Shown: in pieces, positions 1,520 to 37,597 of the stretch
Layout: each line of letters starts with the position of its first letter
Position numbering within the stretch: position 1 is the stretch's first letter
Assembly: GCA_003557585.1 (NCBI GenBank)
Contig: PWOE01000113.1
Location: 1 to 45,744, forward strand
Direction of reading: 5' to 3'
DNA length: 45,744 nt
Source: Candidatus Nealsonbacteria bacterium
GTDB lineage: Bacteria > Patescibacteriota > Minisyncoccia > Minisyncoccales > CSSED10-335
The notes under the pieces: model-generated
Seen by the model: only the letters and a program-made list of their open reading frames with translations
Databases searched by the model: none
Told to the model about the DNA's origin: nothing
Program-made: the position numbers and the translations under genes

Positions 1520-2185
1520 CTACTTTTTCTTTTTTTGTAACTCTTTAACAATCTTAACACCAGAGCTAGTTCCAACAATATCAGCCCCAGCTTTAATCAT
1601 CTTTTTAATGTCATCAAGAGTTCTAACATTACCCGATGCCTTGATTAAAAGACCCGGGGCATTATCTCTCATTAGCTTTAAGTGATAAGCTTTTTCTTTC
1701 ATCTCTCGATTCTCTAAAGGATCTTTAGAAGTGGCTGTTTTAACGCAGATTGCTCCTGCCTTTTTAACTATCTTAGAAGCTTTCTTGATTTCGTCATCTG
1801 TTAAAAAACCTGAACCGATAATAACTTTTGTCGGCAGGATCTTGCAAATAACTTTTAAATCTTTAAGGACTTTATCGTATCTCTCATATTTCATGTCAAT
1901 GATGTTCATGACAATATCTAGTTCATCGCCACCATCCTTTTTTACTTTTTTACAGACCTTAACTCTTTCGCTGTGTGAAGAAAGACCCATAGGAGGATCA
2001 ACCAAGACAACAACTTTAGGCTCTTCACCTTTGAGTTCCTGGCTAGCTAATTTAGTCCATTCGGGGTTAATGCAAACACCATGAAAATTATATTTAATTG
2101 CTTCTTGGCAAAGCTTTTTAATATCTTTAGCTTTAGCTTCTTTTCTAATATCTGTGTGATCTATTGTTTGAGCTATCTTTTGCAT
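1520..2185 (-). CDS. deoC: deoxyribose-phosphate aldolase
   Basis: 221 aa. DeoC-like IDHTDIR, GVCINP, CVKTATS (Schiff-base Lys region) and IKASGNVRT motifs. Abuts the gatB start. Confidence 0.85.
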   Translation of the reverse strand: MQKIAQTIDHTDIRKEAKAKDIKKLCQEAIKYNFHGVCINPEWTKLASQELKGEEPKVVVLVDPPMGLSSHSERVKVCKKVKKDGGDELDIVMNIIDMKYERYDKVLKDLKVICKILPTKVIIGSGFLTDDEIKKASKIVKKAGAICVKTATSKDPLENREMKEKAYHLKLMRDNAPGLLIKASGNVRTLDDIKKMIKAGADIVGTSSGVKIVKELQKKKK

Positions 2186-2231
2186 AATATTTAAGTTCTT
2201 TTTCGCGAAATATCGCTTCTAAAAACTCTTT

Positions 2232-2711
2232 TTATTTTTTATCTAAAACAAGAAAGGTTAGTTTATAATCACTTGTCTCTTTTTCTTCTCTTTCAACTTC
2301 CACCCAAAGAGAAGAGTCATATTCGGGAAAGAATATATCTGCCTTGAAAGAGGCATCAATTAAAGTTAAGTAGATTCTGTCTGCTAAAGGTAGAAATTGA
2401 CGATAAACAGAGGCTCCGCCTGCAATCATAATCTCCTCGACATCCCCTGCTTTATCTATAGCATCTTCTACTGATTTGGCAATCAAGCAATTCTCTTCTT
2501 GAAAATTGTCTTCTCTGCTTAAAATGATATTAGTTCTATCGGGCAAGGGCTTACCAATTGATTCAAATGTCTTTTGCCCCATAATAACTGGTTTACCTAG
2601 AGTCTTTTCTTTGAAATATCTTAAATCTTCTTTAATCTTCCAAGGCAAAGAGTCGCCAAGACCGATCTCTCTATTTTTACCCATCGCCGCAATGATTGAA
2701 ATTCTTGGCAT
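2232..2711 (-). CDS. folA: dihydrofolate reductase
   Basis: ISIIAAMGKNREIGLGDSLPW, VIMGQKTFESIG, TNIILSR and GGASVY motifs. ATG at 2711 (MPRISII) chosen because the longer ORF to 2729 overlaps the thyA stop (2713-2715). Confidence 0.85.
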   Translation of the reverse strand: MPRISIIAAMGKNREIGLGDSLPWKIKEDLRYFKEKTLGKPVIMGQKTFESIGKPLPDRTNIILSREDNFQEENCLIAKSVEDAIDKAGDVEEIMIAGGASVYRQFLPLADRIYLTLIDASFKADIFFPEYDSSLWVEVEREEKETSDYKLTFLVLDKK

Positions 2712-2712
2712 C

Positions 2713-3711
2713 TTAAAATCCACCAACATTAGTTATTGGTGCTTTGATTCCAGAATAAGGATCGTAGTTTTGTAATTCAAAGTCTTGAAACTTGAAATCG
2801 TCTATATCTTTAACCTGAGAATTAATTTTCAAAGAAGGTAACTCTTTTGGCTCTCGAGATAGCTGCTCTTCAACTTGATTGAAATGATCAGAATAGATAT
2901 GTGCATCACCAAAGCTATGTACAAAATCACCCAACTCAAGGTTTGTAACTTGGGCAACCATCAAAAGAAGCATGGCATAACTGGCAATATTGAAAGGAAC
3001 TCCTAAGAACATATCTGCACTTCTTTGATATAATCCTAGATTTAATCTATTGCCTTGAGTCACTGTGAATTGAAATGTTGTGTGGCAGAAAGGTGGGGTT
3101 TCATTTCTATTCTTCTCTGAAGCCATAGCATAGATAAAGTCCGGATTCCAAGCTGAGACAAGATATGACTTTCTAAAGGGTTTATCTTTCAAGCCATCTA
3201 TCACCCAGCCAAGCTGGTCAATTTCTCTGCCATCACTGGCTGGCCAACGTCGCCACATTCTTCCGTAAGAATAGATTAAATCAGCCCACTCTTTAACAAA
3301 ATCATCGCTTTCTGGAAGCTCCTTGATCTTGTTTATAAAATCCTCTTGGCTCAAGTCTTTATCGGGATCATTCTTTAAGCAATGCTTGTGATATCTTTTC
3401 CAGGCCCATTCATCCCATATATGAACATCATTATCAACTAGATATTTAATGTTGGTATCGCCTTTTAAAAACCAGAGAAGCTCATGTAATATCCCTCTGA
3501 AAAATACTTTTTTTGTTGTTAACAATGGAAATCCTTCTGATAAATCAAATCTCATCTGACGACCAAATACAGACTTGATATAAGGGATTTCTCGACCCTC
3601 TTTTTCATATTGACTTTTAACTTCAGGAGTTAGAAAAACCTCTTTTTTAGAGCCTTTTTCCATTATCTCCTTGAGTAGTTCTAAATATTGATATTCAGAC
3701 TTGTTTCTCAT
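2713..3711 (-). CDS. thyA: thymidylate synthase (ThyA, long form with small-domain insert)
   Basis: SAWNP, PPFCHTTFQF (catalytic Cys), YQRSADMFLGVPFNIASYA and GDAHIY motifs. ATG at 3711 (MRNKSEYQYLELL) chosen because the ORF extension to 3762 overlaps the dcd 3' end. Confidence 0.9.
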   Translation of the reverse strand: MRNKSEYQYLELLKEIMEKGSKKEVFLTPEVKSQYEKEGREIPYIKSVFGRQMRFDLSEGFPLLTTKKVFFRGILHELLWFLKGDTNIKYLVDNDVHIWDEWAWKRYHKHCLKNDPDKDLSQEDFINKIKELPESDDFVKEWADLIYSYGRMWRRWPASDGREIDQLGWVIDGLKDKPFRKSYLVSAWNPDFIYAMASEKNRNETPPFCHTTFQFTVTQGNRLNLGLYQRSADMFLGVPFNIASYAMLLLMVAQVTNLELGDFVHSFGDAHIYSDHFNQVEEQLSREPKELPSLKINSQVKDIDDFKFQDFELQNYDPYSGIKAPITNVGGF

Positions 3712-3713
3712 AA

Positions 3714-4253
3714 TTAAACTTGTTCTTCTTTGCCATCGGTTGAGACCCGACCTCCTTGCCACTGTCCTCTATACTGACTTCCCTCTCCTAGTATCTCTTG
3801 AAAAGTAATGTGCACAATTCGGGCTCCAAAAGATATCTTGATTGGGCTCTTGCCCATATTTATTAAACCAAATGTTAATTCTCCTGAATAGCCTGGCTGG
3901 ACAATTCCATTCAAAAGAGCCAGTCCCGACCTAAAAAGAGTCGTTCTTGGGAATATGATACCAGATAATGATTTAGGTAAATTCACCTTTTCAATGGTCT
4001 TTATTAGATAGTACTTGCCTGGCTCAAAAAGAAAGCTCTTTTCTTCTTTTTCATCATATCTCTCAACTAATACGCTCTCTGGCGTCTCCCTTTCTTCAAT
4101 ACCTAAAGACCCATCTCCTTCAAGAGAGTAAATTTCTCCTAAACGAAGATCAAAGCCAGCTCCTTCTGGGTTGTTTAATTCTCTATCACAAAGACCCTCA
4201 ACTAAATTAATTTCTTTAACTAATTTGTGAAGTTCTTTTATGCCTAATATCAT
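3714..4253 (-). CDS. dcd: dCTP deaminase / dUTPase-superfamily protein
   Basis: 179 aa. GFDLRLG, PRTTLFRSGL, VQPGYSGELTFGLIN and a YRGQWQG tail resemble the dCTP deaminase family. Confidence 0.7.
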   Translation of the reverse strand: MILGIKELHKLVKEINLVEGLCDRELNNPEGAGFDLRLGEIYSLEGDGSLGIEERETPESVLVERYDEKEEKSFLFEPGKYYLIKTIEKVNLPKSLSGIIFPRTTLFRSGLALLNGIVQPGYSGELTFGLINMGKSPIKISFGARIVHITFQEILGEGSQYRGQWQGGRVSTDGKEEQV

Positions 4254-4784
4254 TTAGCTTTCTTTAATTTTTATTTCCACTTCTTTGGGAGTATATTGCC
4301 TAATCTTGATACCTCTTTTTTCAGCTAACTCCCAGGCCTCATTCTCTTCTTCTTTACCCTCGCCACCCGTCTTTAATCTTTCATATTTCTCTAGATAAAC
4401 TATCTCTGAGACTCCAACATTATTGAGAGCTTTAAGACAATCGTAACATGGAGAAGATGTTACATAAAGAGTCGCTCCTCTTAATCGTCTAGTGTCTTGG
4501 CAATTAATGATTGCATTAATTTCTGCATGAATGCCTCGACACCTTTTAAGATTACCGTCTTTATCGCCATCAATCTTAGCGCAACCAACCTCTATACAGT
4601 GATCATCTCCTTCTGTGGGCCCATTATAACCCAAAGAGACTATTCTTTTTCTTTCATCAACTAAAACAACCCCTACTTTGTGAAATTTACAAGAAGTTCT
4701 CTCTGAAACCAAAAGAGCCAGACCCATAAAAGTATCATCCCAAGATAGCTTTTTGGTTCTGGCTTTTTTAATGTTTTGATTCAT
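4254..4784 (-). CDS. comEB: deoxycytidylate (dCMP) deaminase, ComEB-type
   Basis: Cytidine/deoxycytidylate deaminase zinc motifs HAEINAI and SPCYDCLKAL. 176 aa. Confidence 0.85.
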   Translation of the reverse strand: MNQNIKKARTKKLSWDDTFMGLALLVSERTSCKFHKVGVVLVDERKRIVSLGYNGPTEGDDHCIEVGCAKIDGDKDGNLKRCRGIHAEINAIINCQDTRRLRGATLYVTSSPCYDCLKALNNVGVSEIVYLEKYERLKTGGEGKEEENEAWELAEKRGIKIRQYTPKEVEIKIKES

Positions 4785-4790
4785 GATTCT

Positions 4791-5216
4791 TTAATCGATG
4801 ATTTCTACTCCCATATTTTTGGCTGTTCCTTCGATGACCTTCATCGCTGCATTTATATCGTCTGTATTTAAATCAGCCATCTTCTTCTCAGCTACTGACT
4901 TTAATTGAGCCTTGGTCATCTTGCCAACTTTCTTTTTTTGAGGAACTCCTGACCCCTTTTCAATGCCTATCTCTTTTTTAATCAATTCTGATGCTGGTGG
5001 CTGTTTAAGATGAAAATCATAACTTCTATCTTCGTAAACATTAATCTCTACAGGAATCTTAAAACCATCTTGGTCTCTTGTCTTATCGTTGAATTGCTGG
5101 CAAAATTCAGCAATATTCAAGCCATGCTGAGCCAAAGCTGGGCCGACTGGAGGAGCTGGAGTCGCTTTTCCAGCAGCAATCTGAACTTTAATAACAGCTT
5201 TAATCTTTTTTTTCAT
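4791..5216 (-). CDS. rplK: 50S ribosomal protein L11 (uL11)
   Basis: 141 aa. [24 protein letters not shown] is the canonical L11 N-terminal motif. Confidence 0.96.
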
Positions 5217-8073: not shown

Positions 8074-8099
8074 ATAAAAAAACCGACTTAAGTCGGCTT
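8074..8099 (-). terminator. rho-independent terminator after the tRNA cluster and small ORF
   Basis: Minus-strand RNA AAGCCGAC-UUAA-GUCGGUU (7-bp stem with one G-U) followed by a U-run (plus-strand A-run 8076-8080). The stop codon of the small ORF lies in the loop. Confidence 0.45.
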
Positions 8100-8315
8100 A
8101 TTTTTTTCTTTTTTGTGAGATATAATTTCAGTTGGTTCGGCAAATGATTGCGTTTTTTTAAATATAATTCCATTCTCTTTTACTCTTCCTATTAATCTCT
8201 TTTCTCCATTTGATTCCACTATCTCGGCTCTTCTTATTTCTAAAACATTTCCCGAGGAAGTCCTGACGTCAATGCGGCGATACTCTCCAACTGATAAGTC
8301 TCCTACTCTTATCAC
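8088..8315 (-). CDS. hypothetical small protein (~75 aa)
   Basis: The 97-aa ORF overlaps tRNA-Asp at its 5' end. An in-frame GTG at 8315 lies 9 nt after a strong SD, AAAGGAGAG (8323-8331). No recognisable family. Confidence 0.4.
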   Translation of the reverse strand: MIRVGDLSVGEYRRIDVRTSSGNVLEIRRAEIVESNGEKRLIGRVKENGIIFKKTQSFAEPTEIISHKKEKNKPT

Positions 8316-8351
8316 AAACAATCTCTCCTTTCTTTTTTCAATGTTCTTGTT

Positions 8352-8428
8352 TGGCGGGGACGACCGGACTCGAACCGGCAACCTCCACTGTGACAGAGTG
8401 GCGATCTAACCAATTGATCTACGCCCCC
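8352..8428 (-). tRNA. tRNA-Asp (anticodon GTC), CCA encoded
   Basis: Manual fold: GGGGGCG/TA/GATC-AATTGGTTA-GATC/G/CCACT-CTGTCAC-AGTGG/AGGTT/GCCGG-TTCGAGT-CCGGT/CGTCCCC/G-CCA. Canonical cloverleaf with G73. Confidence 0.9.
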
Positions 8429-8438
8429 AAATGAACTG

Positions 8439-8512
8439 TGCCGGCGGGAGGACTTGAACCTCCGACCTACGGCTTATGAGTCCGTCGCTCTTACCAACTG
8501 AGCTACGCCGGC
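8439..8512 (-). tRNA. tRNA with anticodon CAT, elongator type (Met, or Ile2 if lysidine-modified)
   Basis: GCCGGCG/TA/GCTC-AGTTGGTAA-GAGC/G/ACGGA-CTCATAA-GCCGT/AGGTC/GGAGG-TTCAAGT-CCTCC/CGCCGGC/A. G1-C72 is paired. A31/G39 mismatch. No encoded CCA. Confidence 0.85.
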
Positions 8513-8538
8513 TCGATTCAATATATTTTAAAAAAATG

Positions 8539-8609
8539 TTGCGGGGGCCGGAATTGCACCGGCGCCTTGAGGTTATGGGCCTCACATGGTACTACTCCAC
8601 CACCCCGCA
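8539..8609 (-). tRNA. initiator-like tRNA (anticodon CAT) with non-canonical loops
   Basis: TGCGGGG/TG/GTGG-AGTAGTA-CCAT/G/TGAGG-CCCATAA-CCTCA/AGGC/GCCGG-TGCAATT-CCGGC/CCCCGCA/A. The acceptor stem nearly matches E. coli tRNA-fMet (CGCGGGG...CCCCGCAA). It has C33 and G55 and lacks GG in the D-loop. Confidence 0.65.
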
Positions 8610-8652: not shown

Positions 8653-9180
8653 CTAAGATATGGCGCTTAAATTCCTAAACGTTCTCTCATAAACTTTAAG
8701 CGTCTCTCTCGCTTTTTCCAAGGTAAGCTGATAGTCAGGGTCATAAACAACATTATTTCTAGTTTTTCTCGCTTCTTTGATCTCATCAATGTTTTCAAGT
8801 TCAGAGCTAGTTGTCTTTTCCAGCTTCTCTTCTATCGTCTTTTCGCTATGACCAATTCTTTCAAGAGTCTTATCAAGCATCATATCAGCCTCTATAATTG
8901 CCAACTTATACTCTGATTCTAGGCCGCTATCTAGCTTCTTTTCAATCTTCTTCCATTCTTTCAAGAGCTTACTGCTTCCTTGAGGCTTAAAAGAGAGGAA
9001 CTCTGATGCCTCCTCAAAAAACCTTAAATTTAATCGCTGACTTACTAAAAGGACAAAAATTATCACTCCTAAAAAAACTATTGACAAGACGATGAAAACA
9101 ATTTGCGAAATTTCTATAATATCATTGAATGGTTGCGGAATTGTTTCTGGTGATAATAGATAAGAAATTATTTCTTCCAT
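8653..9180 (-). CDS. hypothetical membrane-anchored protein
   Basis: 175 aa. One TM helix (IVFIVLSIVFLGVIIFVLLV) followed by a charged helical region. Overlaps the gatA stop by 13 nt. Confidence 0.6.
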   Translation of the reverse strand: MEEIISYLLSPETIPQPFNDIIEISQIVFIVLSIVFLGVIIFVLLVSQRLNLRFFEEASEFLSFKPQGSSKLLKEWKKIEKKLDSGLESEYKLAIIEADMMLDKTLERIGHSEKTIEEKLEKTTSSELENIDEIKEARKTRNNVVYDPDYQLTLEKARETLKVYERTFRNLSAIS

Positions 9181-10882: not shown

Positions 10883-11950
10883 TTATTGTTTGGGAGCTTC
10901 TAGCATGTCTGTCTCCAAGAGAACCTCGTGCAACTCATCGATATGCTCTAAGACAAAGCCGGCTCCCCTAGCGACCGCTGTTAGCGGATCATCTGCTATC
11001 TTAGTTTTTATCTTGGTCTCTTCAGCTATTAATTGATCGAGCCCTTTCAAGAGACTACCTCCACCCAAAAGATAAATTCCTTTGTTCATGATATCGGCCA
11101 ATAATTCTGGTGGAGTATCTTCCACTGTTAATTTTATCGATGTAATAATCTCTTTAACCGACTTCTCCATTGCCCTTCTAATATCTTTGTCAGTAACAAT
11201 TATCTCTTCTGGTAAACCAGTTACAACATTTCTACCTCTTATCGGCATCTCTAATTTATCTTTAAGCGGATAAGCAGATCCTATGCTAATCTTCACCTCT
11301 TCCGCAGTTCTTTCTCCTATTAGCAACTTGTACTCTTCTTGAGCAAACTTTATGATGTCTTCGTTAAGCTTGTCTCCAGCAACCCTAAGACTTCTAGCGA
11401 CAACTATTCCTCCAAGTGAGATAACAGCAACTTCTGTTGTTCCACCACCAATATCAACTATGAAATTTCCGCCTGCATCTTGAACTTGTAGGCGAGCTCC
11501 AATCGCTGACGCCATCGGCTCTTCTATCAAGAAGACCTCTCTTGCTCCAGCATTCTTGCCCGCATCTTGAACGGCCTTCTTTTCAACTTCAGTAACCCCA
11601 AATGGAATGCCAACAATCAATCTCGGTCTTAATTTTATGAAAAACTTTCTGTCATAGGCTTTGTCTATGAAATATCTCAACATCTGCTCGGTGACGTCAA
11701 AATCAGAAACAACTCCTGAAACAAGAGGTCTTGTTGCCACTATATGAGCTGGTGTCTTGCCAACCATTCTTTTAGCCTCTTCTCCTATCGCTAGAATCTG
11801 ACCAGTCTTTTGATTAACAGCAACAACTGATGGTTCAGATATTATTATTCCTCGCCCCCTGACATAGACAAGAGAATTAGCTGTCCCAAGATCAATACCG
11901 ATATCGGTTGAAAATTTACTAAAGAATTCTTTGAGATAAGATTTAATCAT
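10883..11950 (-). CDS. mreB: rod shape-determining protein MreB (paralog 1)
   Basis: 355 aa. Actin-fold motifs IGIDLGTANSLVY, DIGGGTTEVAVISLGGIV and GGGSLLKGLD. Confidence 0.9.
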   Translation of the reverse strand: MIKSYLKEFFSKFSTDIGIDLGTANSLVYVRGRGIIISEPSVVAVNQKTGQILAIGEEAKRMVGKTPAHIVATRPLVSGVVSDFDVTEQMLRYFIDKAYDRKFFIKLRPRLIVGIPFGVTEVEKKAVQDAGKNAGAREVFLIEEPMASAIGARLQVQDAGGNFIVDIGGGTTEVAVISLGGIVVARSLRVAGDKLNEDIIKFAQEEYKLLIGERTAEEVKISIGSAYPLKDKLEMPIRGRNVVTGLPEEIIVTDKDIRRAMEKSVKEIITSIKLTVEDTPPELLADIMNKGIYLLGGGSLLKGLDQLIAEETKIKTKIADDPLTAVARGAGFVLEHIDELHEVLLETDMLEAPKQ

Positions 11951-14486: not shown

Positions 14487-15500
14487 TTAACGCCTAGTCA
14501 TTATGCTTCTCTTGTAAGCATCTAGATTTTCTAAAACCTCTCCTGTTCCTTTCGCTACACAAGTTAAGGGTTCATCTGCTATAAAACAAGGAACCCCAAT
14601 ATTTTGAGAAATAAGAGTATCGATATTCCTTAAAAGAGCTCCTCCGCCAGAAACAACCATGCCTTTGTCCATGATATCAGCAGATAGCTCAGGTGGAGTG
14701 TCTCTCAAGACCTGTCTTATCGTTGCTAAAATCTCTTCTAATGGCTCTCTTATCGCCTCGGCAACTTCATTCGAGCTTATGCTTATATTCCTGGGAAGCC
14801 CTAAAGCCAAGTCTCTACCTCTAATATTCATAGTCTTCTCTTCTTTTTCAGGAATTGCTGTGCCGATTTCTTTCTTGATTTCTTCTGCTGTCTGTGACCC
14901 AACAGCCAGCTTATATTTCTTTTTTATATAATCTACAATGGCTGCATCAATCTTATCACCCGCTGTTCTCAAAGAAGAATAGTTAACAACGCCTCCTAGA
15001 GATATGACGGCGACCTCAGAAGTTCCGCCTCCGATATCGACAATCATATGTCCTGAGCAAGAATTAATCGGCATACCTGCTCCAATAGCTGCCAAAACTG
15101 GCTCTTTCGCAACATAGACAGCTTTGGCTCCAGCTAAGATACCTGCCTCAATGACAGCTCTTTTCTCGGTAGAGGTTACTCCCGCAGGAATACCAATAAT
15201 TAGTTCTGGCTTAAATAATCTAAATGACTTTGTAGTTTTGGTAATGAAATAACGAAGCATTACCTCAGTTATCTTGTATTCGGCAATAACCCCGTCTTTA
15301 AGAGGGCGATAAACCTTAATTGAATCGGGAGTTCGGCCTATCATCTCTTTGGCTTCAGCTCCGACGGCTAATATCTTATTCTCAGAAATAGAAACTGCAA
15401 TAACTGACGGCTCGTTAAGAACTAGCCCTTTCTTGGGAATGAAAACCAAAGAATTACAAGTACCAAGGTCTATTCCTATCTTTTTAATAAACATATTCAT
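14487..15500 (-). CDS. mreB: rod shape-determining protein MreB (paralog 2)
   Basis: 337 aa. IGIDLGTCNSLVF, DIGGGTSEVAVISLGGVV and GGGALLRNID. Confidence 0.9.
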   Translation of the reverse strand: MNMFIKKIGIDLGTCNSLVFIPKKGLVLNEPSVIAVSISENKILAVGAEAKEMIGRTPDSIKVYRPLKDGVIAEYKITEVMLRYFITKTTKSFRLFKPELIIGIPAGVTSTEKRAVIEAGILAGAKAVYVAKEPVLAAIGAGMPINSCSGHMIVDIGGGTSEVAVISLGGVVNYSSLRTAGDKIDAAIVDYIKKKYKLAVGSQTAEEIKKEIGTAIPEKEEKTMNIRGRDLALGLPRNISISSNEVAEAIREPLEEILATIRQVLRDTPPELSADIMDKGMVVSGGGALLRNIDTLISQNIGVPCFIADEPLTCVAKGTGEVLENLDAYKRSIMTRR

Positions 15501-16910: not shown

Positions 16911-18224
16911 ATGACGAAAAAAGAGAGATCTATATTGTTTATAATAATGCTTCTTCTTTTCCTTTTTCTAGGACCAACTTTGGTTCTTTATTCACAAGGA
17001 TATAGGTTTGATTTAGAGTCTAAAAGAATTGTCCAAAGCGGCGCCCTCTATTTCAGAGCTTCTCCTAGAAGCGTCTTTGTAGAAGTGATGACCGATGACC
17101 AGTCAAGGGTTATTAATAGAAAAACTGATTTTTTCTTTGGCACTCTTTTCATTGAAAATCTCCTACCTAAAACTCACCATATCAAGATACAAAAAGAGAA
17201 TTATCATCCGTGGCAAAAAAGCATCCAAATCGGAGAAAGGCTTGTTTCTGAATTTAAAAACATCACATTGATACCCAAAGAGGCAAAGATTGAAATCGCT
17301 GAAAAAGATATTAAAGAGCTCTTCTATTTTCCAGAAAAAGATAAATTAATTTTTCTATCAAACAATAACGACCTATTTTTTCATGAGAACAAGCAAGACA
17401 GCCAATTAATATTTTCATATAATGAAAAAGAAGAGATAGAGGTGATAGATCTACTTAAAGATAGCGAAAAAGTCTTGGTCAAGGCTGACGATAATTACTT
17501 TTTAATTAACGGAGAAGATCAAGAATCAACTTTAATTAGCCTTCCAGATAATATTCAAAAGATATCGATGACAGAAGAAGGGGTATTCTTCATAAAAGAA
17601 GGAGATCTCTATCTTTATAAACATGAAATGAAAGAGACCTCTCTATTTTTCGAAGAGGTTCTTGATTACAGAATTGATAAAAAAGATATCTTTTATCTTT
17701 CTGAAGATGGATTTTTGATGAAGAATGATAACAAGATCAATCAAGATCCTGTTGCCTTTGAAGAATCAGCCGACATCATTAATTTAAATCCCAATATAAT
17801 TAAGGATGAAGAAGCCTTCTATGTCTTTGACAGAAATGATTCAAAATTTAAAGAGATTGTTCAGTCTGATTGCAATGCTTTAATTTCTCCTGATAATAAA
17901 AAGATGGCTTGCTATAAAGACCATGAGATAAGGATCATTTTCCTTGAAAATATTTTTGATCAACCCCAAAGGGAGGCTGGTGATGTTGTCTTCCTAACCA
18001 GAGTTTCAGACAAGATAGACTATTTAAATTGGTATACTTCCCATTATCTAATATTCACAACAACCAACCAGATAAAGACGATTGAAATAGATAATCGCGA
18101 TCATATCAATGTTAATCAAATAGCAGAGATTGATTTCAGAGATATCTTTTTCAGATTTTCTGACAAAAGACTATATCTCTTAAGCGATCAAAATCTGATT
18201 GTTTCAGAAAAACTTGTTCCTTAA
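16911..18224 (+). CDS. membrane-anchored PEGA-domain protein with C-terminal repeat region
   Basis: 437 aa. N-terminal TM (ILFIIMLLLFLFLGPTLVLY). PEGA-like segment (VFVEVMTDD...HHIKIQKENYHPWQKSIQI). Later SPDNKKMACY resembles PD40/TolB-like repeats. The only plus-strand gene between 47 and 44829. Confidence 0.65.
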   Translation: MTKKERSILFIIMLLLFLFLGPTLVLYSQGYRFDLESKRIVQSGALYFRASPRSVFVEVMTDDQSRVINRKTDFFFGTLFIENLLPKTHHIKIQKENYHPWQKSIQIGERLVSEFKNITLIPKEAKIEIAEKDIKELFYFPEKDKLIFLSNNNDLFFHENKQDSQLIFSYNEKEEIEVIDLLKDSEKVLVKADDNYFLINGEDQESTLISLPDNIQKISMTEEGVFFIKEGDLYLYKHEMKETSLFFEEVLDYRIDKKDIFYLSEDGFLMKNDNKINQDPVAFEESADIINLNPNIIKDEEAFYVFDRNDSKFKEIVQSDCNALISPDNKKMACYKDHEIRIIFLENIFDQPQREAGDVVFLTRVSDKIDYLNWYTSHYLIFTTTNQIKTIEIDNRDHINVNQIAEIDFRDIFFRFSDKRLYLLSDQNLIVSEKLVP

Positions 18225-22402: not shown

Positions 22403-23683
22403 CTAAATATCAGCTTCCACCTTTATTTTAATATCTATCTTGTCTGCTTTAGGCATTCTCGTTAGCCAAAATGGATAATAATTTATCTTTGCTTTAAAGA
22501 TGCCTTCATAATTGTTCAAGATAGTCTCTGCCTCATCAATCTTTCTCCTTTCAAGTAGTTTTTTTGTATTAGCTTCTCTAACTCCGTTATAGACAAGAGC
22601 TGAGGCATCAATTCTAAAAATAGCCTCCCCTTTGATTGAATCAAGTGACTTGACTTCGTAAAAGATATCGATGCTATCCAAACAAACTTCTTTAAGAGAC
22701 AAGATGCTGTCACTCTGAGTATCGTTGTCATAATCGTTCAAGATAAAGCTACTTAACATCTCTTTTAAGTCTGATTCCTTGAAAGAAAGTATCTTGAGAT
22801 CTATTTTAACTGAATAATCAAATGATTCAGAATTTTCTCCAACATTGGGATAAACTGATTCTTCAGATATCTCCCATTCCATTAAATCGTTGTCGATAAC
22901 GAAGTCTTCTGATATCTCTTTTTTAAGCTTTTCTCTGGATAAATTCAAGATATCTTGTATCGTAATCTCTCTAGCTTCGCTGACATCCTTGTCTGTTATC
23001 TTGGGCAGCTCTTTGACATAACCACCACTGATCGGTTCGTTGTTTTCGGCATAAATTGAGGTATACATCGGTGTTCCCTGAAGTCCAGGAATTGAAAATT
23101 TCTGACTTTTCTCTATGTTGTAATCCTCCCCGGCTTCTGCCGCAACAACAACTAAATCTATTTTACCTGGTCCCGATGGAGTCCTGCCTGGCACAGAAAC
23201 TCTTTCAACTGAACGGAAAAGCTTGCCTTCTGAAGATATAAATCTAGTGCTGGCTATCAGAATTTGAGGTAATGAAGAATGGTTGTTATAAACTGTTAAA
23301 GTTCCCTGTGCCTTTTCTTCTTTTATCTCTTGACCAGAAGAGATGAAGCTTCTTGATTTCTCCTCTTTCATCTCAAATATCTCACCCGGCATCTCTTGAT
23401 CATCATAATTGAGATGCAAAATTGACGATTGTACTTTTAATTCACCCAAGTAATCTACTTTTTCGGTTTCAGGCCAGATAACGATTTCTCCTTTCAAGAA
23501 TATTGTATGGCTAAATATGATAAACAATACCAAGAAGAAAGCTAAAACGGATAATATAATCTTTGATTTCATTGTTCTTTTTTTCAAAAAAATAAAATTG
23601 CTTCTCTTTTTATTTGAAGAGTTATCTTTATAATCTTTCTCTTTTTTATCGGGGGGAAATATGTCGTATATCTTTTTGGGCAT
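22403..23683 (-). CDS. hypothetical membrane-anchored protein
   Basis: 426 aa. Basic N-terminus, one TM helix (IILSVLAFFLVLFIIF), large extracytoplasmic beta-rich region. No family recognised by eye. Confidence 0.65.
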   Translation of the reverse strand: MPKKIYDIFPPDKKEKDYKDNSSNKKRSNFIFLKKRTMKSKIILSVLAFFLVLFIIFSHTIFLKGEIVIWPETEKVDYLGELKVQSSILHLNYDDQEMPGEIFEMKEEKSRSFISSGQEIKEEKAQGTLTVYNNHSSLPQILIASTRFISSEGKLFRSVERVSVPGRTPSGPGKIDLVVVAAEAGEDYNIEKSQKFSIPGLQGTPMYTSIYAENNEPISGGYVKELPKITDKDVSEAREITIQDILNLSREKLKKEISEDFVIDNDLMEWEISEESVYPNVGENSESFDYSVKIDLKILSFKESDLKEMLSSFILNDYDNDTQSDSILSLKEVCLDSIDIFYEVKSLDSIKGEAIFRIDASALVYNGVREANTKKLLERRKIDEAETILNNYEGIFKAKINYYPFWLTRMPKADKIDIKIKVEADI

Positions 23684-23724: not shown

Positions 23725-25566
23725 CTACTCTAACTTCGCTTTAATTCTTCTAACTCCAGAAGAGGAAGCCTCCTCTTTAATTATTTTGAAATTACCTAAC
23801 TCTGAAGTATTTGAGACATGTGGGCCATGACAGATCTCTTTTGAAAAAGAATCAATCGCATAGACTATTACTTTGTCTGGATATCTCTCTCCGAAAGATG
23901 CCAATGCTCCTGATTTCAGAGCTTCATTCAAATCCATCTCTCGGCGAATGATAGGCAAACCTTCTCTTATTTTTCTGTTCACAATCTCTTCCACTTTATT
24001 TATCTCTTCCTCAGTCATCTTCCTGTCAAAAGAGAAATCAAATCTCAATCTTTCTGGATTTATATTGCTCCCTTTCTGAAAAACTTGATCTCCTAACACA
24101 TCCCTTAATGCTTTTAATAAAAGATGAGTGGCAGTGTGTAACTTCTTTGTCTTTTCACTTGAATCGACTAATCCTCCTTTAAAAACTCCAGCTGAAGCAG
24201 TTCTTGAAAGCCTTTTATGTTTTTCATTCTCTTCAATAAATCCTTTTTTATCAAGATTCTGTCCTCTTTCTTGAGCTAATTCCTGAATCATCTCAATCGG
24301 AAAGCCGTAGCTCTGATGTAAAAAGGCTGCATCTTTGGCGCTTATCTCTCTTTTGTCTCTTAATTTATTAAATTCTTTAATGCCACGCTCCAATGTTTTG
24401 TTAAATATCTTTCCTTCTTTCTCTAGCTCCTCTTTAATAAATTCTTTATTCTTTTCAAGCTCAGGGTAGTTGTCTTTATATATTTCAATCACCTTGCTTG
24501 CCACGCGACTCATCCAATTGTCGGAATCAATTCCAATCTCTCTTGCATATCTAATTGCCCTCCTCACTAGCCTTCTAACAAAATATCCCTGATGTTTGTT
24601 TGAAGGAACAACTCCTTTTTCATCTCCGACGATAAAAGTTGCTGCTTTTATATGGTCAGCAATAACTTCAAAGCTTTTTATATCATCCCTGTATCTCTTG
24701 TTTGACATCTCTTCTATCTCTGAAATGATGAGTTTGAAAAGATCTGTCTCAAAAACACTTTCAAGGTTTTCCTTTGCCATGGCTATTCTCTCTAAGCCAC
24801 CTCCAAAATCAACATTCTTATTTTTTATCTCATGCCATCCATCTTCGCTTTTCTGGTACTGCATAAAAACTGAATTGCCAATTTCGATGAATCTGCCGCA
24901 ATCACAATTAAGATGACAGAACTCTCCAAAAGACGGATCGTGCTTCTTATCTGTTTCGTAAAATGTTTCTGAGTCAGGACCACCAAGCTCTCCAATGGCG
25001 TCTCCTCTTTGCCACCAATTCTTATCTTTATAAGCAAATATCTTCTCTTTTGAAAAATCAATTTTAACTCCCGGACCATCTTCGCCCTTTCCTGAAGTCT
25101 CCGGCCCCTCCAGAGCATCGATGCCATATTTCCTGTATATCTTTTTTAGAATCGATATCGACTCATTATCTTTAGAGATAGATTCGTCACCCAGGTAAAC
25201 AGTTTGGTATATTCTTTCGGGATCTATCTTGATAACTTCAAAAAGAAATTCGAACCACCAAGAAAGTTGCTCCTCTTTAAAATAGTCACCTAAAGACCAA
25301 TTGCCAAGCATTTCAAAAAAAGTGGTATGACGTTTGTTGCCTATCTCTTCAATATCGTCACTTCTGAAAGATCTTTGAAAATTAACTAATCTCTTGCCTT
25401 TGGGATGCTTCTCCCCCAAGAGAAAAGGGACCAAAGGAAACATGCCCGAATTAACAAAGAGAAGAGTCGGGTCATTTTCCGGTATCAACGACACGGAAGG
25501 AACGAGATGATGTCCCTTCTCTTTATAAAAAGAGATAAATTTTTCTCTAATTTCAGAAGAATCCAT
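23725..25566 (-). CDS. alaS: alanine--tRNA ligase, short form lacking the C-Ala domain
   Basis: 613 aa. N-terminus IREKFISFYKEKGHHLVPSVSLIPENDPTLLFVNSGM. Editing-domain metal motifs HTATHLL and CHGPHV. Ends just after GVRRIKA. Confidence 0.9.
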   Translation of the reverse strand: MDSSEIREKFISFYKEKGHHLVPSVSLIPENDPTLLFVNSGMFPLVPFLLGEKHPKGKRLVNFQRSFRSDDIEEIGNKRHTTFFEMLGNWSLGDYFKEEQLSWWFEFLFEVIKIDPERIYQTVYLGDESISKDNESISILKKIYRKYGIDALEGPETSGKGEDGPGVKIDFSKEKIFAYKDKNWWQRGDAIGELGGPDSETFYETDKKHDPSFGEFCHLNCDCGRFIEIGNSVFMQYQKSEDGWHEIKNKNVDFGGGLERIAMAKENLESVFETDLFKLIISEIEEMSNKRYRDDIKSFEVIADHIKAATFIVGDEKGVVPSNKHQGYFVRRLVRRAIRYAREIGIDSDNWMSRVASKVIEIYKDNYPELEKNKEFIKEELEKEGKIFNKTLERGIKEFNKLRDKREISAKDAAFLHQSYGFPIEMIQELAQERGQNLDKKGFIEENEKHKRLSRTASAGVFKGGLVDSSEKTKKLHTATHLLLKALRDVLGDQVFQKGSNINPERLRFDFSFDRKMTEEEINKVEEIVNRKIREGLPIIRREMDLNEALKSGALASFGERYPDKVIVYAIDSFSKEICHGPHVSNTSELGNFKIIKEEASSSGVRRIKAKLE

Positions 25567-29473: not shown

Positions 29474-30758
29474 ACTCCCTCATTTGAAGTTGAGAATTTA
29501 TCTGCTTTATTGTTTCTAAAACAACACTGACAATAATTAAGACAGAGGCTCCTCCAATCAAAAATTGAAAATCTTCTATCTGAATTTGGGTTATCACTTC
29601 AATTAGCCATCTTATAATCCAAGGCATTATAGCGACAATTCCCAGAAAGAGACCTCCCAAAAACAAGGTTCTGTTTAATATATGCCCCAAGAACTTAGCT
29701 GTTGGCTCGCCCGGCCTAATCCCCGGGACAAAACCACCCATCTTTTTAAGGTTGTCTGCCACATTCTTGGGGTCAAATGTAATTGCAGTATAAAAATAAG
29801 TAAAGGCAAAGACCAAAATGAATGTTAAAGCTCCGAAAACCAGTAAACTATCGAGGGTATTGGCTATAAAACCGGCAACACTACCTAAGAAGCCACCAAT
29901 TCTAGACATAAATTGAGCTAATATCGATGGCAAAGAGACGAGAGAAAATGCAAAGATTATCGGAATAACTCCAGCTGGATTGAGGTTTAATGGAAGATAT
30001 GTAGAGGATCCGCCATAAAGCTTCATGCCTCTTACTCTTTTAGCATATGAAATTGGAATATTCCTTCTAGCTTCAGTGAAAAGAATCACTCCGAAGATAA
30101 TTGAGGCTGCCATCAGAAAAAGAAGAACATATGCTTGTATGGCACCTGGATAATCTCTGATGCTAGCAATCATATTGAAGGTATTAATGGGAAAGTCAGC
30201 GATAATTCCAGCAAAAATTAAGAGAGATACTCCATTACCTATTCCTTTTTCTGTAATTAATTCACCTAACCACATCAAAAATACAGTTCCTGCAGTGATT
30301 GTAGCCAGAGCGTTAATTGTTGCCATTAAATCTAATGGCTCAATCACTCCTTGCCCTTGAAAAAGAGCCAGCATTCCATATCCCTGAAGAAGGGCAAAAG
30401 GAATTGTTAAAAGTCTGCCATACTGATTTATCTTTTGCCTGCCAGCATCTCCTTCTTCTTTTTGAAGTTGCTCTAGTGCAGGGAAAACCATAGTTAAAAG
30501 CTGCATAATAATGACAGCTGTGATGTATGGTCCAAGTCCAAGCATAACGATAGAAAATCTATCAAGTGCTCCACCGGTAAAGGCACTCGCAAATTGAAAG
30601 ATTCCGAAATCTTGAAAAAATGCCTGCATACCTTCGGTATTGATGCCCGGCATCGGAATGTTCGCCATTAATCGAAAAACTACAAAGACGCCTAAAACAA
30701 AGAGTATCTTGTTTCTTAGCTCTTTGATTTTAAATATTTGGATAAGCTTTTCTATCAT
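29460..30758 (-). CDS. secY: preprotein translocase subunit SecY
   Basis: 432 aa, 10-TM pattern. LGLGPYITAVIIMQLL and GNGVSLLIFAGI. Confidence 0.96.
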   Translation of the reverse strand: MIEKLIQIFKIKELRNKILFVLGVFVVFRLMANIPMPGINTEGMQAFFQDFGIFQFASAFTGGALDRFSIVMLGLGPYITAVIIMQLLTMVFPALEQLQKEEGDAGRQKINQYGRLLTIPFALLQGYGMLALFQGQGVIEPLDLMATINALATITAGTVFLMWLGELITEKGIGNGVSLLIFAGIIADFPINTFNMIASIRDYPGAIQAYVLLFLMAASIIFGVILFTEARRNIPISYAKRVRGMKLYGGSSTYLPLNLNPAGVIPIIFAFSLVSLPSILAQFMSRIGGFLGSVAGFIANTLDSLLVFGALTFILVFAFTYFYTAITFDPKNVADNLKKMGGFVPGIRPGEPTAKFLGHILNRTLFLGGLFLGIVAIMPWIIRWLIEVITQIQIEDFQFLIGGASVLIIVSVVLETIKQINSQLQMREYETF

Positions 30759-31186
30759 TATAGCATAGAGCCTTTAGCTTTCTCTATCTTGTTCTTGGCT
30801 GCTTCGGAGAGAAGGCAATCTTTTATCTTTAATGATTTATTAATTTCTCCCTTGCCAAGTATCTTAACCTCTGGCTTTTTCCCTGAAGCTCTGCGAATCA
30901 TCTTTTTTTCAAGCAATGTCTCGGGAGAAACAACTTCATTTTCTTTGAAGTTGTCGTTTATATCTTTCAAGTTAACGATTGCAATTCCCTTGTCCTTGGA
31001 ATTGAAATTATAACCTCTAAGCTTATGATATTTCTTAATAATACCTCTAATTGGTGGTTCTAGCTTTCTTCCAGCTCTCGCTTTCTGTCCTTTAACTCCT
31101 CTGCCAGAATAGGTGCCTCTTTTGCCACCTCGACCAACAATCTTTTTTTTAGCTTTTTTAGATGATTTAACTTGATGAATCTGCAT
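30758..31186 (-). CDS. rplO: 50S ribosomal protein L15 (uL15)
   Basis: 142 aa. VGRGGKRGTYSGRGVKGQKARAG. Confidence 0.93.
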   Translation of the reverse strand: MQIHQVKSSKKAKKKIVGRGGKRGTYSGRGVKGQKARAGRKLEPPIRGIIKKYHKLRGYNFNSKDKGIAIVNLKDINDNFKENEVVSPETLLEKKMIRRASGKKPEVKILGKGEINKSLKIKDCLLSEAAKNKIEKAKGSML

Positions 31187-31192
31187 AATCTT

Positions 31193-31687
31193 TTATTTAG
31201 AATTATCTGATACGCTCTCCTCTGGAAGCTTTAATTTCTTTAAGGCCTCTATGGTCGCCTTGGCATTATTAAGCTTGTTATTTGTTCTGCTAACTATTTT
31301 AGCTGATATATTTTTGATTCCAGCTAAGTCGCATATAATTCTCACTGTTCCTCCGGCTACAAGACCTCGTCCCTTTTTCTGGGGCCTTAAAAGAACTTGA
31401 GCCGCACCATACTTGGCTTCAATTTGATGCGGAATAGTGTCATCAATTATAGGAACTTTAATTAATTCTTTTTTAGCGAGATTTGTTGCCTTGTTTATCG
31501 CCTCACTGACATCGCTTGACTTGGCGACTCTAACTCCAACTCTTCCTTTTCTGTCGCCAACGACAACAACGGCTTGGAAACGAAGCCTTCTCCCTCCAGC
31601 GGTCATCCTTTCAACCCTTGAAAGACCTAGAAGTTTTGAGTCAAATTCTTGGTCTTTTTTCTTTTTGAAATCTTTTTTCGCAATCAT
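31193..31687 (-). CDS. rpsE: 30S ribosomal protein S5 (uS5)
   Basis: 164 aa. RVERMTAGGRRLRFQAVVVVGDRKGRVG and GRGLVAGGTVR. Confidence 0.95.
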   Translation of the reverse strand: MIAKKDFKKKKDQEFDSKLLGLSRVERMTAGGRRLRFQAVVVVGDRKGRVGVRVAKSSDVSEAINKATNLAKKELIKVPIIDDTIPHQIEAKYGAAQVLLRPQKKGRGLVAGGTVRIICDLAGIKNISAKIVSRTNNKLNNAKATIEALKKLKLPEESVSDNSK

Positions 31688-36814: not shown

Positions 36815-37264
36815 TTATCTTCTTTTTTTTCTTCTTCTTTTAATAATCATCCTGTTGGTGTTTTTTCTCTTTCTTGTCTTGACCCCTCGCGCAATCTTGC
36901 CCCAAGGAGTTTTAGGATGCTTCAAACCGATTGGAGCCTTGCCTTCTCCTCCTCCGTGTGGATGGTCAACTGGATTCATCGCTGAGCCCCTAACTGTTGG
37001 CCTTCTCCCCATTCTTCTTGCAGTTCCAGCATTCTTAATCTTCTTGTATCTATGTTCGGGATTTGAAACTGAACCGACAGAAGCAAAGCAGTTCTTGTGA
37101 ATCTTTCTTACCTCTTTTGAAGGCATTTCCAGTGTAACATATTTGCCCTCTAAAGATAGAACTTTGGCTGAAGAGCCGGCAGATCTCACAAGGCCACCTC
37201 TTCTTTCTGGCTCAATTTGAATATTGTAAACTTCGGTGCCAACTGGAATATGCTTTATTCTCAT
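36815..37264 (-). CDS. rplB: 50S ribosomal protein L2 (uL2), C-terminal part, downstream of an in-frame TAA
   Basis: 149 aa. IPVGTEVYNIQIEPERRGGLVRSAGSSA, PTVRGSAMNPVDHPHGGGEG. In the same frame as ORF 37283..37597, separated from it by TAA plus 6 codons (IKPGNR). Confidence 0.85.
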   Translation of the reverse strand: MRIKHIPVGTEVYNIQIEPERRGGLVRSAGSSAKVLSLEGKYVTLEMPSKEVRKIHKNCFASVGSVSNPEHRYKKIKNAGTARRMGRRPTVRGSAMNPVDHPHGGGEGKAPIGLKHPKTPWGKIARGVKTRKRKNTNRMIIKRRRKKRR

Positions 37265-37282
37265 TCTGTTGCCTGGCTTTAT

Positions 37283-37597
37283 TTATGCTTTCTCTGAAGC
37301 AACCACCTGGTCATCTTCTTTGACTCCTTGCGGAGCAAGGATATAGCTTTTCTTGCCATCTGGATACTCGACTAAGGCGATATATGCTGTGCGATATGGG
37401 TCATACTCGAAATGAATAATCTTAGCTGGTTCATCTAATCTATTTCTGCTGAAATCAACCAGTCGATACTTTCTTTTAGCTCCGCCTCCTTTATGCCTAA
37501 CCGTAATCCTGCCTGAGCTTCCTCGCCCAGCATTTCTTTTTAAGCTAACAAGTAGCTTTTTTTGCGGCTTCTTTTTTGATAATGTTTGTTTAGCCAT
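37283..37597 (-). CDS. rplB: 50S ribosomal protein L2 (uL2), N-terminal part, ends at a premature in-frame TAA
   Basis: 104 aa. [52 protein letters not shown]. Stop at 37283-37285. Confidence 0.85.

Follow-up and report, generated by a model that had tools for sequence, protein, structure and literature searches.

The window analyzed here, a complete NCBI contig of 45,744 bp with a G+C content of 37% and of Patescibacteria/Parcubacteria type, carries the str, S10, spc, and alpha ribosomal operons in canonical order. They are flanked by gyrB, gatCAB, two mreB genes, murA, frr, alaS, tpiA, secY, adk, and map, as well as by a thyA-folA-dcd-dCMP deaminase cluster and rplK-nusG. Within the S10 operon, rplB, the gene for ribosomal protein uL2, is placed between rplW and rpsS, in the same order as in three related contigs (L117, L119, and L123), and its frame contains a single internal TAA (Table 1). 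Reading the minus strand from the ATG at 37597, we found 104 codons, the TAA at 37285..37283, and then, with the frame kept, another 155 codons, followed by a terminal TAA (36817..36815) that places the C-terminus exactly where it lies in relatives. This second reading of the strand confirmed the two ORFs originally delimited on either side of the internal stop, 37283..37597 (104 aa) and 36815..37264 (149 aa), as well as the translation across their junction, which runs VASEKA, the stop, and then IKPGNRMRIKHIP. As the frame is unchanged across the stop, ribosome hopping and frameshifting were dropped as explanations.

Table 1. Parts of the interrupted rplB frame, with their coordinates in the window and the basis of each assignment.
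Feature	Coordinates	Strand	Basis
rplB (uL2) frame, 260 codons plus terminal TAA, with a single internal TAA	36815..37597	minus	Homology; Pfam L2_N and L2_C
Codons 1-104, N-terminal tail and RNA-binding (OB-like) domain	37286..37597	minus	PF00181; 68-76% identity to relatives
In-frame TAA, codon 105; Glu (GAA/GAG) in relatives	37283..37285	minus	Codon comparison
IKPGNR spacer, six codons between the TAA and the next ATG	37265..37282	minus	Family consensus still encoded
ATG of Met112, first possible restart codon; ancestral internal Met (GNRM)	37262..37264	minus	Alignment
Codons 113-260 plus terminal TAA, SH3-like C-terminal domain with HPHGGGEG and basic tail	36815..37261	minus	PF03947; 81-82% identity to relatives

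Apart from the stop, the gene has the properties of an ordinary rplB. Joined across codon 105, the protein has 260 aa, which equals the length of most close homologues, and the alignment shows no indel at the junction; the original description of one residue replaced without insertion or deletion therefore stands. The joined sequence matches PF00181 (Ribosomal_L2_N) over residues 24-99 (profile positions 1-76 of 77, E = 5.6e-32 to 7e-31) and then PF03947 (Ribosomal_L2_C) over residues 107-233 (profile positions 6-126 of 126, E = 1.8e-47 to 2.9e-46), with the HPHGGGEG loop that marks the family present in the latter. It also aligns with solved bacterial uL2 chains (E = 1.6e-82) with no gaps around the junction. 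Both halves are thus undegraded, as had been stated, and the IKPGN motif reported to persist after the stop is still encoded in the spacer as part of IKPGNR. What fails is the expectation that uL2 is encoded in one uninterrupted frame, with the TAA at codon 105.

The position of the stop relative to the protein domains was overlooked in the original prediction. Residue 105 falls within the 7-residue gap that separates the L2_N and L2_C matches. We inspected the AlphaFold (AF2) model of the closest relative (P0001), a protein with the same length and numbering as the uL2 of the window. In this model, residues 101-110 form an ordered coil (pLDDT ~93) between the last strand of the N-terminal domain and the first strand of the C-terminal domain (residues 111-113). 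A total of 134 single-base nonsense changes are possible in rplB, and only 5 of these (3.7%) fall in residues 100-106. This linker position is the best argument for a split that could be tolerated.

Among the approximately 57 genes of the window, rplB is the only one that is interrupted, and even the small genes rpmJ, rpsN, and rpmC are intact. Long ORFs that share a frame and are separated by a single stop occur in six pairs on the gene-bearing minus strand. The five pairs other than rplB, with stops at 1520, 4254, 4791, 18837, and 31193, were rejected as split genes, being distinct neighbors with full-length family matches (gatB/deoC-like, dcd/dCMP deaminase/rplK, rpsI/rplM, and rplO/rpsE). 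Since no other nonsense codon or frameshift was found in these genes, the assembly is not generally error-prone. TAA is also the main terminator in the window, ending 44 of 57 genes at C-termini that match those of homologues, while TAG ends 9 and TGA 4; rplB itself ends in TAA. The commonest terminator tetranucleotide is TAA-A (20 genes), which is identical to the context of the internal stop. The four tRNAs encoded in the window (Asp-GTC, two Met-CAT, and Pro-GGG) include no suppressor tRNA.

Several other features of the window are reported here in their own right. The two tRNA-Met(CAT) genes and tRNA-Asp(GTC) form a tight cluster on the minus strand (8352..8609). Of the CAT pair, one could serve as the initiator tRNA or be a precursor of tRNA-Ile2, and a 97-aa ORF with a TTG start that overlaps tRNA-Asp (8088..8381) is probably spurious. 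In the ribosomal operons, rpmD (L30) is absent between rpsE and rplO, where the gap is 6 nt (30758..31687), and rplK directly adjoins the dCMP deaminase gene (4254..5216), rplA (L1) not being at that place. Reduced ribosomal gene sets of such a kind have been reported for bacteria of the candidate phyla radiation. Between rplK and gatB, a deoxynucleotide block on the minus strand (1520..5216) comprises genes for dCMP deaminase, dcd, thyA, folA, and a DeoC-family aldolase. At their N-termini, the longest ORFs of thyA and rplC extend into the genes upstream; these extensions are probably untranslated. Two full-length mreB paralogues are encoded on the minus strand at 10883..11950 and 14487..15500, each matching Pfam MreB_Mbl with E ~1e-136; they lie ~2.5 kb apart, with genes for an M50 protease, frr, and holB between them. 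The product of alaS (23725..25566, minus strand) has 613 aa, well below the size of typical bacterial AlaRS, and appears to stop after the editing domain. Three ORFs have no Pfam match: 8653..9180 (minus strand, 175 aa), 16911..18224 (plus strand, 437 aa), and 22403..23683 (minus strand, 426 aa). The 437-aa ORF is the only plus-strand gene in the window, and both it and the 426-aa ORF have an N-terminal hydrophobic segment.

To place codon 105 in context, we aligned uL2 with 29 close homologues, which share 64-79% identity with it and are nearly all 259-261 aa long. The column of the stop is Glu in almost every one of the 29, within the consensus SEKAEIKPGNRM. At the DNA level, codon 105 is GAG in L117 and GAA in both L119 and L123, the three closest contigs. 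With GAA as the codon of relatives, a single G>T transversion suffices to give TAA; the plus-strand base at 37285 is A, and a C there would restore GAA. We then considered 36 metagenome loci whose DNA encodes EKA-x-IKPGNRM. In these, codon x was GAA in 13, GAG in 8, AAG in 4, AAA in 3, CAA in 2, GAT in 2, and GAC, TTG, ACA, and CCG in one each, so that besides Glu the position is occupied by Lys (7 loci), Asp (3), Gln (2), and Leu, Thr, and Pro (one each). A stop was found at codon x in none of the 36, and none of these loci came from the same species as the window. Likewise, a search of the metagenomes with a degenerate DNA pattern for SEKA-x-IKPGNRMRIKHIP gave no match. No internal stop occurred in a set of 116 rplB loci either; these had been retrieved through DNA-pattern or tblastn matches and are hence unbiased by gene calling. 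The originally proposed check of whether related rplB loci share the stop accordingly came out negative, the close homologues being intact at 259-261 aa and all 36 loci carrying a sense codon at this position. A split state shared among relatives, which would be expected of an evolved gene fission, is therefore not seen.

The stop is also confined to a single record. In a collection of ~15 billion proteins, each half of uL2 forms a one-member cluster that comprises only the contig of the window, and exact look-ups of both halves and of the neighboring S19 and L23 found no other contig. The best intact uL2 homologue is 80% identical, and identities to 260-aa Patescibacteria uL2 proteins are 75-80%, the best named matches being assigned to Nealsonbacteria, 'Pacebacteria', and the Patescibacteria group. 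That the best intact uL2 is only 80% identical indicates that the species has no other representative in these data, either with or without the stop. A scan of genome contigs with the joined protein was dominated by the universal MNPVDHPH pattern and gave no close relative, the best among the matches listed being 57% identical.

A different rplB stop was encountered on the JGI contig Ga0376277_0080220 (L124). Here a Patescibacteria-type rplB contains an in-frame TAG at 47-49 (DKERQ, the stop, IIAPQ), located at or next to the position of the invariant Tyr85 and 67 nt from the contig end. The gene call on this contig covers only a 167-aa L2_C fragment, and the site of the TAG differs from that of the stop in the window. 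The 167-aa L2_C-only protein (P0159) was considered as a second natural split and rejected, being a contig-end fragment with its TAG at a different site. The L124 case does show that isolated rplB stops occur sporadically in public assemblies.

We next asked whether rplB shows signs of decay or of adaptation to the stop. Of 74 columns that do not vary among the other 29 sequences, the uL2 of the window matches 73, the sole deviation being an A to S change, and intact relatives deviate at 0-2 such columns. Its identity to the uL2 encoded on the three relatives' contigs is 78, 75, and 79%, compared with 80, 83, and 79% among the relatives themselves, and twelve other translation genes from the str, S10, and spc operons give the same pattern of identities. 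The internal TAA is the only lesion in rplB, and the relaxed constraint that would mark a pseudogene is not seen. Moreover, the 18 nt that separate the stop from the next ATG keep IKPGNR, in which G109 and R111 are invariant and N110 nearly so, while an untranslated spacer would be free to drift. Given this combination of no decay and no adaptation, the stop, if it is real, arose long after the lineage had separated from its nearest relatives. Two features that one would expect of a gene fission are nevertheless present, as both halves are under constraint and the break coincides with a domain boundary.

Expression of the downstream half would depend on a start at the ATG of Met112. We compared the upstream regions of 51 minus-strand genes with those of internal in-frame ATGs and found SD-like 4-mers (GGAG, GAGG, or AGGA) at 7 of the 51 real starts vs. 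32 of 206 internal ATGs. This lack of enrichment agrees with the SD-independent initiation that had been suggested, and initiation in the window does appear, from its sequence, to be SD-independent. The A+T content upstream was 76% for real starts and 63% for internal ATGs; for ATG 37264 it was 59%, and no SD-like motif was found upstream of this codon. The downstream half thus shows no start signals of its own. The original prediction had proposed a split uL2 expressed by termination-reinitiation at ATG 37264. As an evolved arrangement, this is not supported, the codon being an ancestral internal Met with the upstream composition just described. A product started there would also lack G109 and R111, which are invariant, and N110, which is nearly so. 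The gap of 18 nt is within the range where reinitiation is already strongly reduced in E. coli and Haloferax volcanii; in these two organisms it becomes steeply less frequent as the gap widens, and at ~20 nt hardly any is left (PMC10666635). With regard to read-through, the 115 nt around and after the stop fold no better than shuffled sequences (MFE z = +0.64). The signs of programmed read-through are therefore lacking, as the stop is absent in relatives, TAA-A is an ordinary terminator in the window, and no structure was found.

In our view the TAA probably (at roughly 65%) stems from an error in the consensus, the assembly, or the sequencing, or else is a minor allele that the assembler picked or a deleterious mutation of very recent origin; an artefact or population variant was the first of the options originally listed. 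A G>T substitution would have turned the GAA codon of Glu105 into TAA in one assembled contig, and the resulting base would not be the working allele of the living population. Low coverage or G>T oxidative damage might account for an error; alternatively, the assembler may have taken up a minor allele, or a fresh deleterious mutation may be awaiting purging. The organism would then decode the gene in the usual way into an ordinary uL2 of 260 aa, position 105 being Glu or a residue like it. The stop is a single base away from the codon of relatives, it is absent in those relatives, the gene has no other lesion, and TAA terminates normally in the window. We favor an error or a private allele because relatives have GAA or GAG and none of the 36 or 116 loci has such a stop, because both halves are singletons on one contig and the stop is without independent confirmation, and because there is neither decay nor adaptation to a split nor a read-through signal, while L124 illustrates how such stops turn up sporadically. 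Against an error, the rest of the window is clean, and a hit in the linker, a 3.7% target, is somewhat unlikely for a random event. A fresh pseudogene, with a second intact rplB elsewhere supplying uL2, would make nonsense in an essential gene compatible with life, and nothing in the window speaks against such a copy, but the gene occupies its canonical place (rplW-rplB-rpsS) in the order seen in relatives and has a single lesion with no relaxation of constraint. To our knowledge, the genomes of Patescibacteria are small and duplicated ribosomal protein genes are not expected in them, and we consider this explanation very improbable. Reassignment of TAA to a sense codon has only the in-frame TAA itself in its favor; the use of TAA at 44 of 57 gene ends, together with the fact that no other conserved gene carries an in-frame TAA, practically excludes it, in agreement with the earlier rejection of a global reassignment, to which the 20 genes ending in TAA-A also speak.

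If the stop is instead real and tolerated, uL2 would be made as two polypeptides, with termination after Ala104 and a C-terminal domain started at Met112, either by SD-independent de novo initiation or by reinitiation, and the two halves would sit side by side on the 23S rRNA. The TAA lies in the ordered coil between L2_N and L2_C, an in-frame ATG follows within 7 codons and could in principle be used where initiation does not depend on an SD, and both halves are fully conserved. A precedent exists in eudicot mitochondria: there the original rpl2 is cut short by a TAA, which leaves a 5′ part, and the 3′ part is provided by a separate gene (PMC5664110, citing Adams et al., 2001). This case is one of gene transfer and separate expression signals, however, and not of a bare stop codon. 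The split is further opposed by its occurrence on one contig only, with no stop at this or any other position in the rplB of relatives, and by the lack of drift in a spacer that would supposedly be untranslated. The C-terminal fragment would lack I106-R111, and its start would fall within the first strand of the domain. The sequence preceding ATG 37264 has the composition of internal ATGs rather than of real starts, and reinitiation across 18 nt would be close to the distance at which it is nearly abolished in E. coli and H. volcanii (PMC10666635). Taking the linker location together with the clean remainder of the contig, we regard a real split as unlikely but not negligible. The more specific scenario of a very young fission of uL2 at the domain linker in a bacterium of a free-living lineage (Patescibacteria), with an SD-less restart at the internal Met and before any compensatory change, seems to us quite unlikely. 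Alternatively, near-cognate read-through of the UAA could yield full-length uL2, as could an ochre-suppressor tRNA with its gene elsewhere in the genome. In favor of this, the IKPGNR codons that follow the stop are fully conserved, as they would be if still translated, and rplB shows no decay. Yet UAA-A is the most used terminator, and as it stands at 20 of 57 gene ends an efficient suppressor would extend most proteins. The basal level of UAA read-through in bacteria falls far short of the supply needed for a ribosomal protein made in stoichiometric amounts. The tRNAs of the window are limited to those for Asp, Met, and Pro listed above, no stimulatory RNA structure follows the stop, and no relative shares it, which leaves read-through or suppression improbable.

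Among known systems, rplB resembles the single-gene internal-stop lesions of metagenome-assembled genomes (consensus errors or private nonsense alleles), in which a one-base change is private to one assembly and the gene is otherwise under constraint; the rplB of L124, with its stop at a different site, is a second example. It differs from them in that the rest of the 45.7-kb contig is clean and the stop lies exactly in the inter-domain linker. In Gracilibacteria and Absconditabacteria, UGA is read as Gly (genetic code 25) throughout the genome, with many in-frame UGAs per gene. The window resembles these lineages in having an in-frame stop in a conserved gene of the candidate phyla radiation, but the codon here is TAA, it occurs once in ~57 genes, and it is the main terminator. 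A stop followed by a close in-frame ATG on the same mRNA is also reminiscent of termination-reinitiation coupling in prokaryotes (Huber et al., 2023, PMC10666635). In that study, coupling is efficient only where genes overlap or lie a few nt apart (spacings such as -4 or -1), whereas rplB has an 18-nt gap and a restart codon that is an ancestral internal Met. With the fission of mitochondrial rpl2 in eudicots, the gene would share N- and C-terminal uL2 polypeptides, along with a TAA that truncates the original gene to its 5′ part. In plants, the 3′ rpl2 stands apart from the 5′ part, usually in the nucleus, and has expression and targeting signals of its own (PMC5664110), and that split is conserved across many lineages; in the window, the two parts share a frame and are separated by 18 nt, have no evolved signals, and have been seen once.

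Were the stop real and fixed, rplB would be the first natural bacterial split of a universal large-subunit protein near the peptidyl-transferase center. It would mean that the domains of uL2 can be delivered separately, as in eudicot mitochondria, and would provide a test of SD-independent restart within an operon. If the stop is an error or a transient allele, it is a matter of quality control only, and rplB should be annotated with a suspected internal-stop error and not taken as evidence of recoding in Patescibacteria. On the best-supported reading, the rplB stop is not a biological feature of this organism, and represents at most an ordinary nonsense allele.
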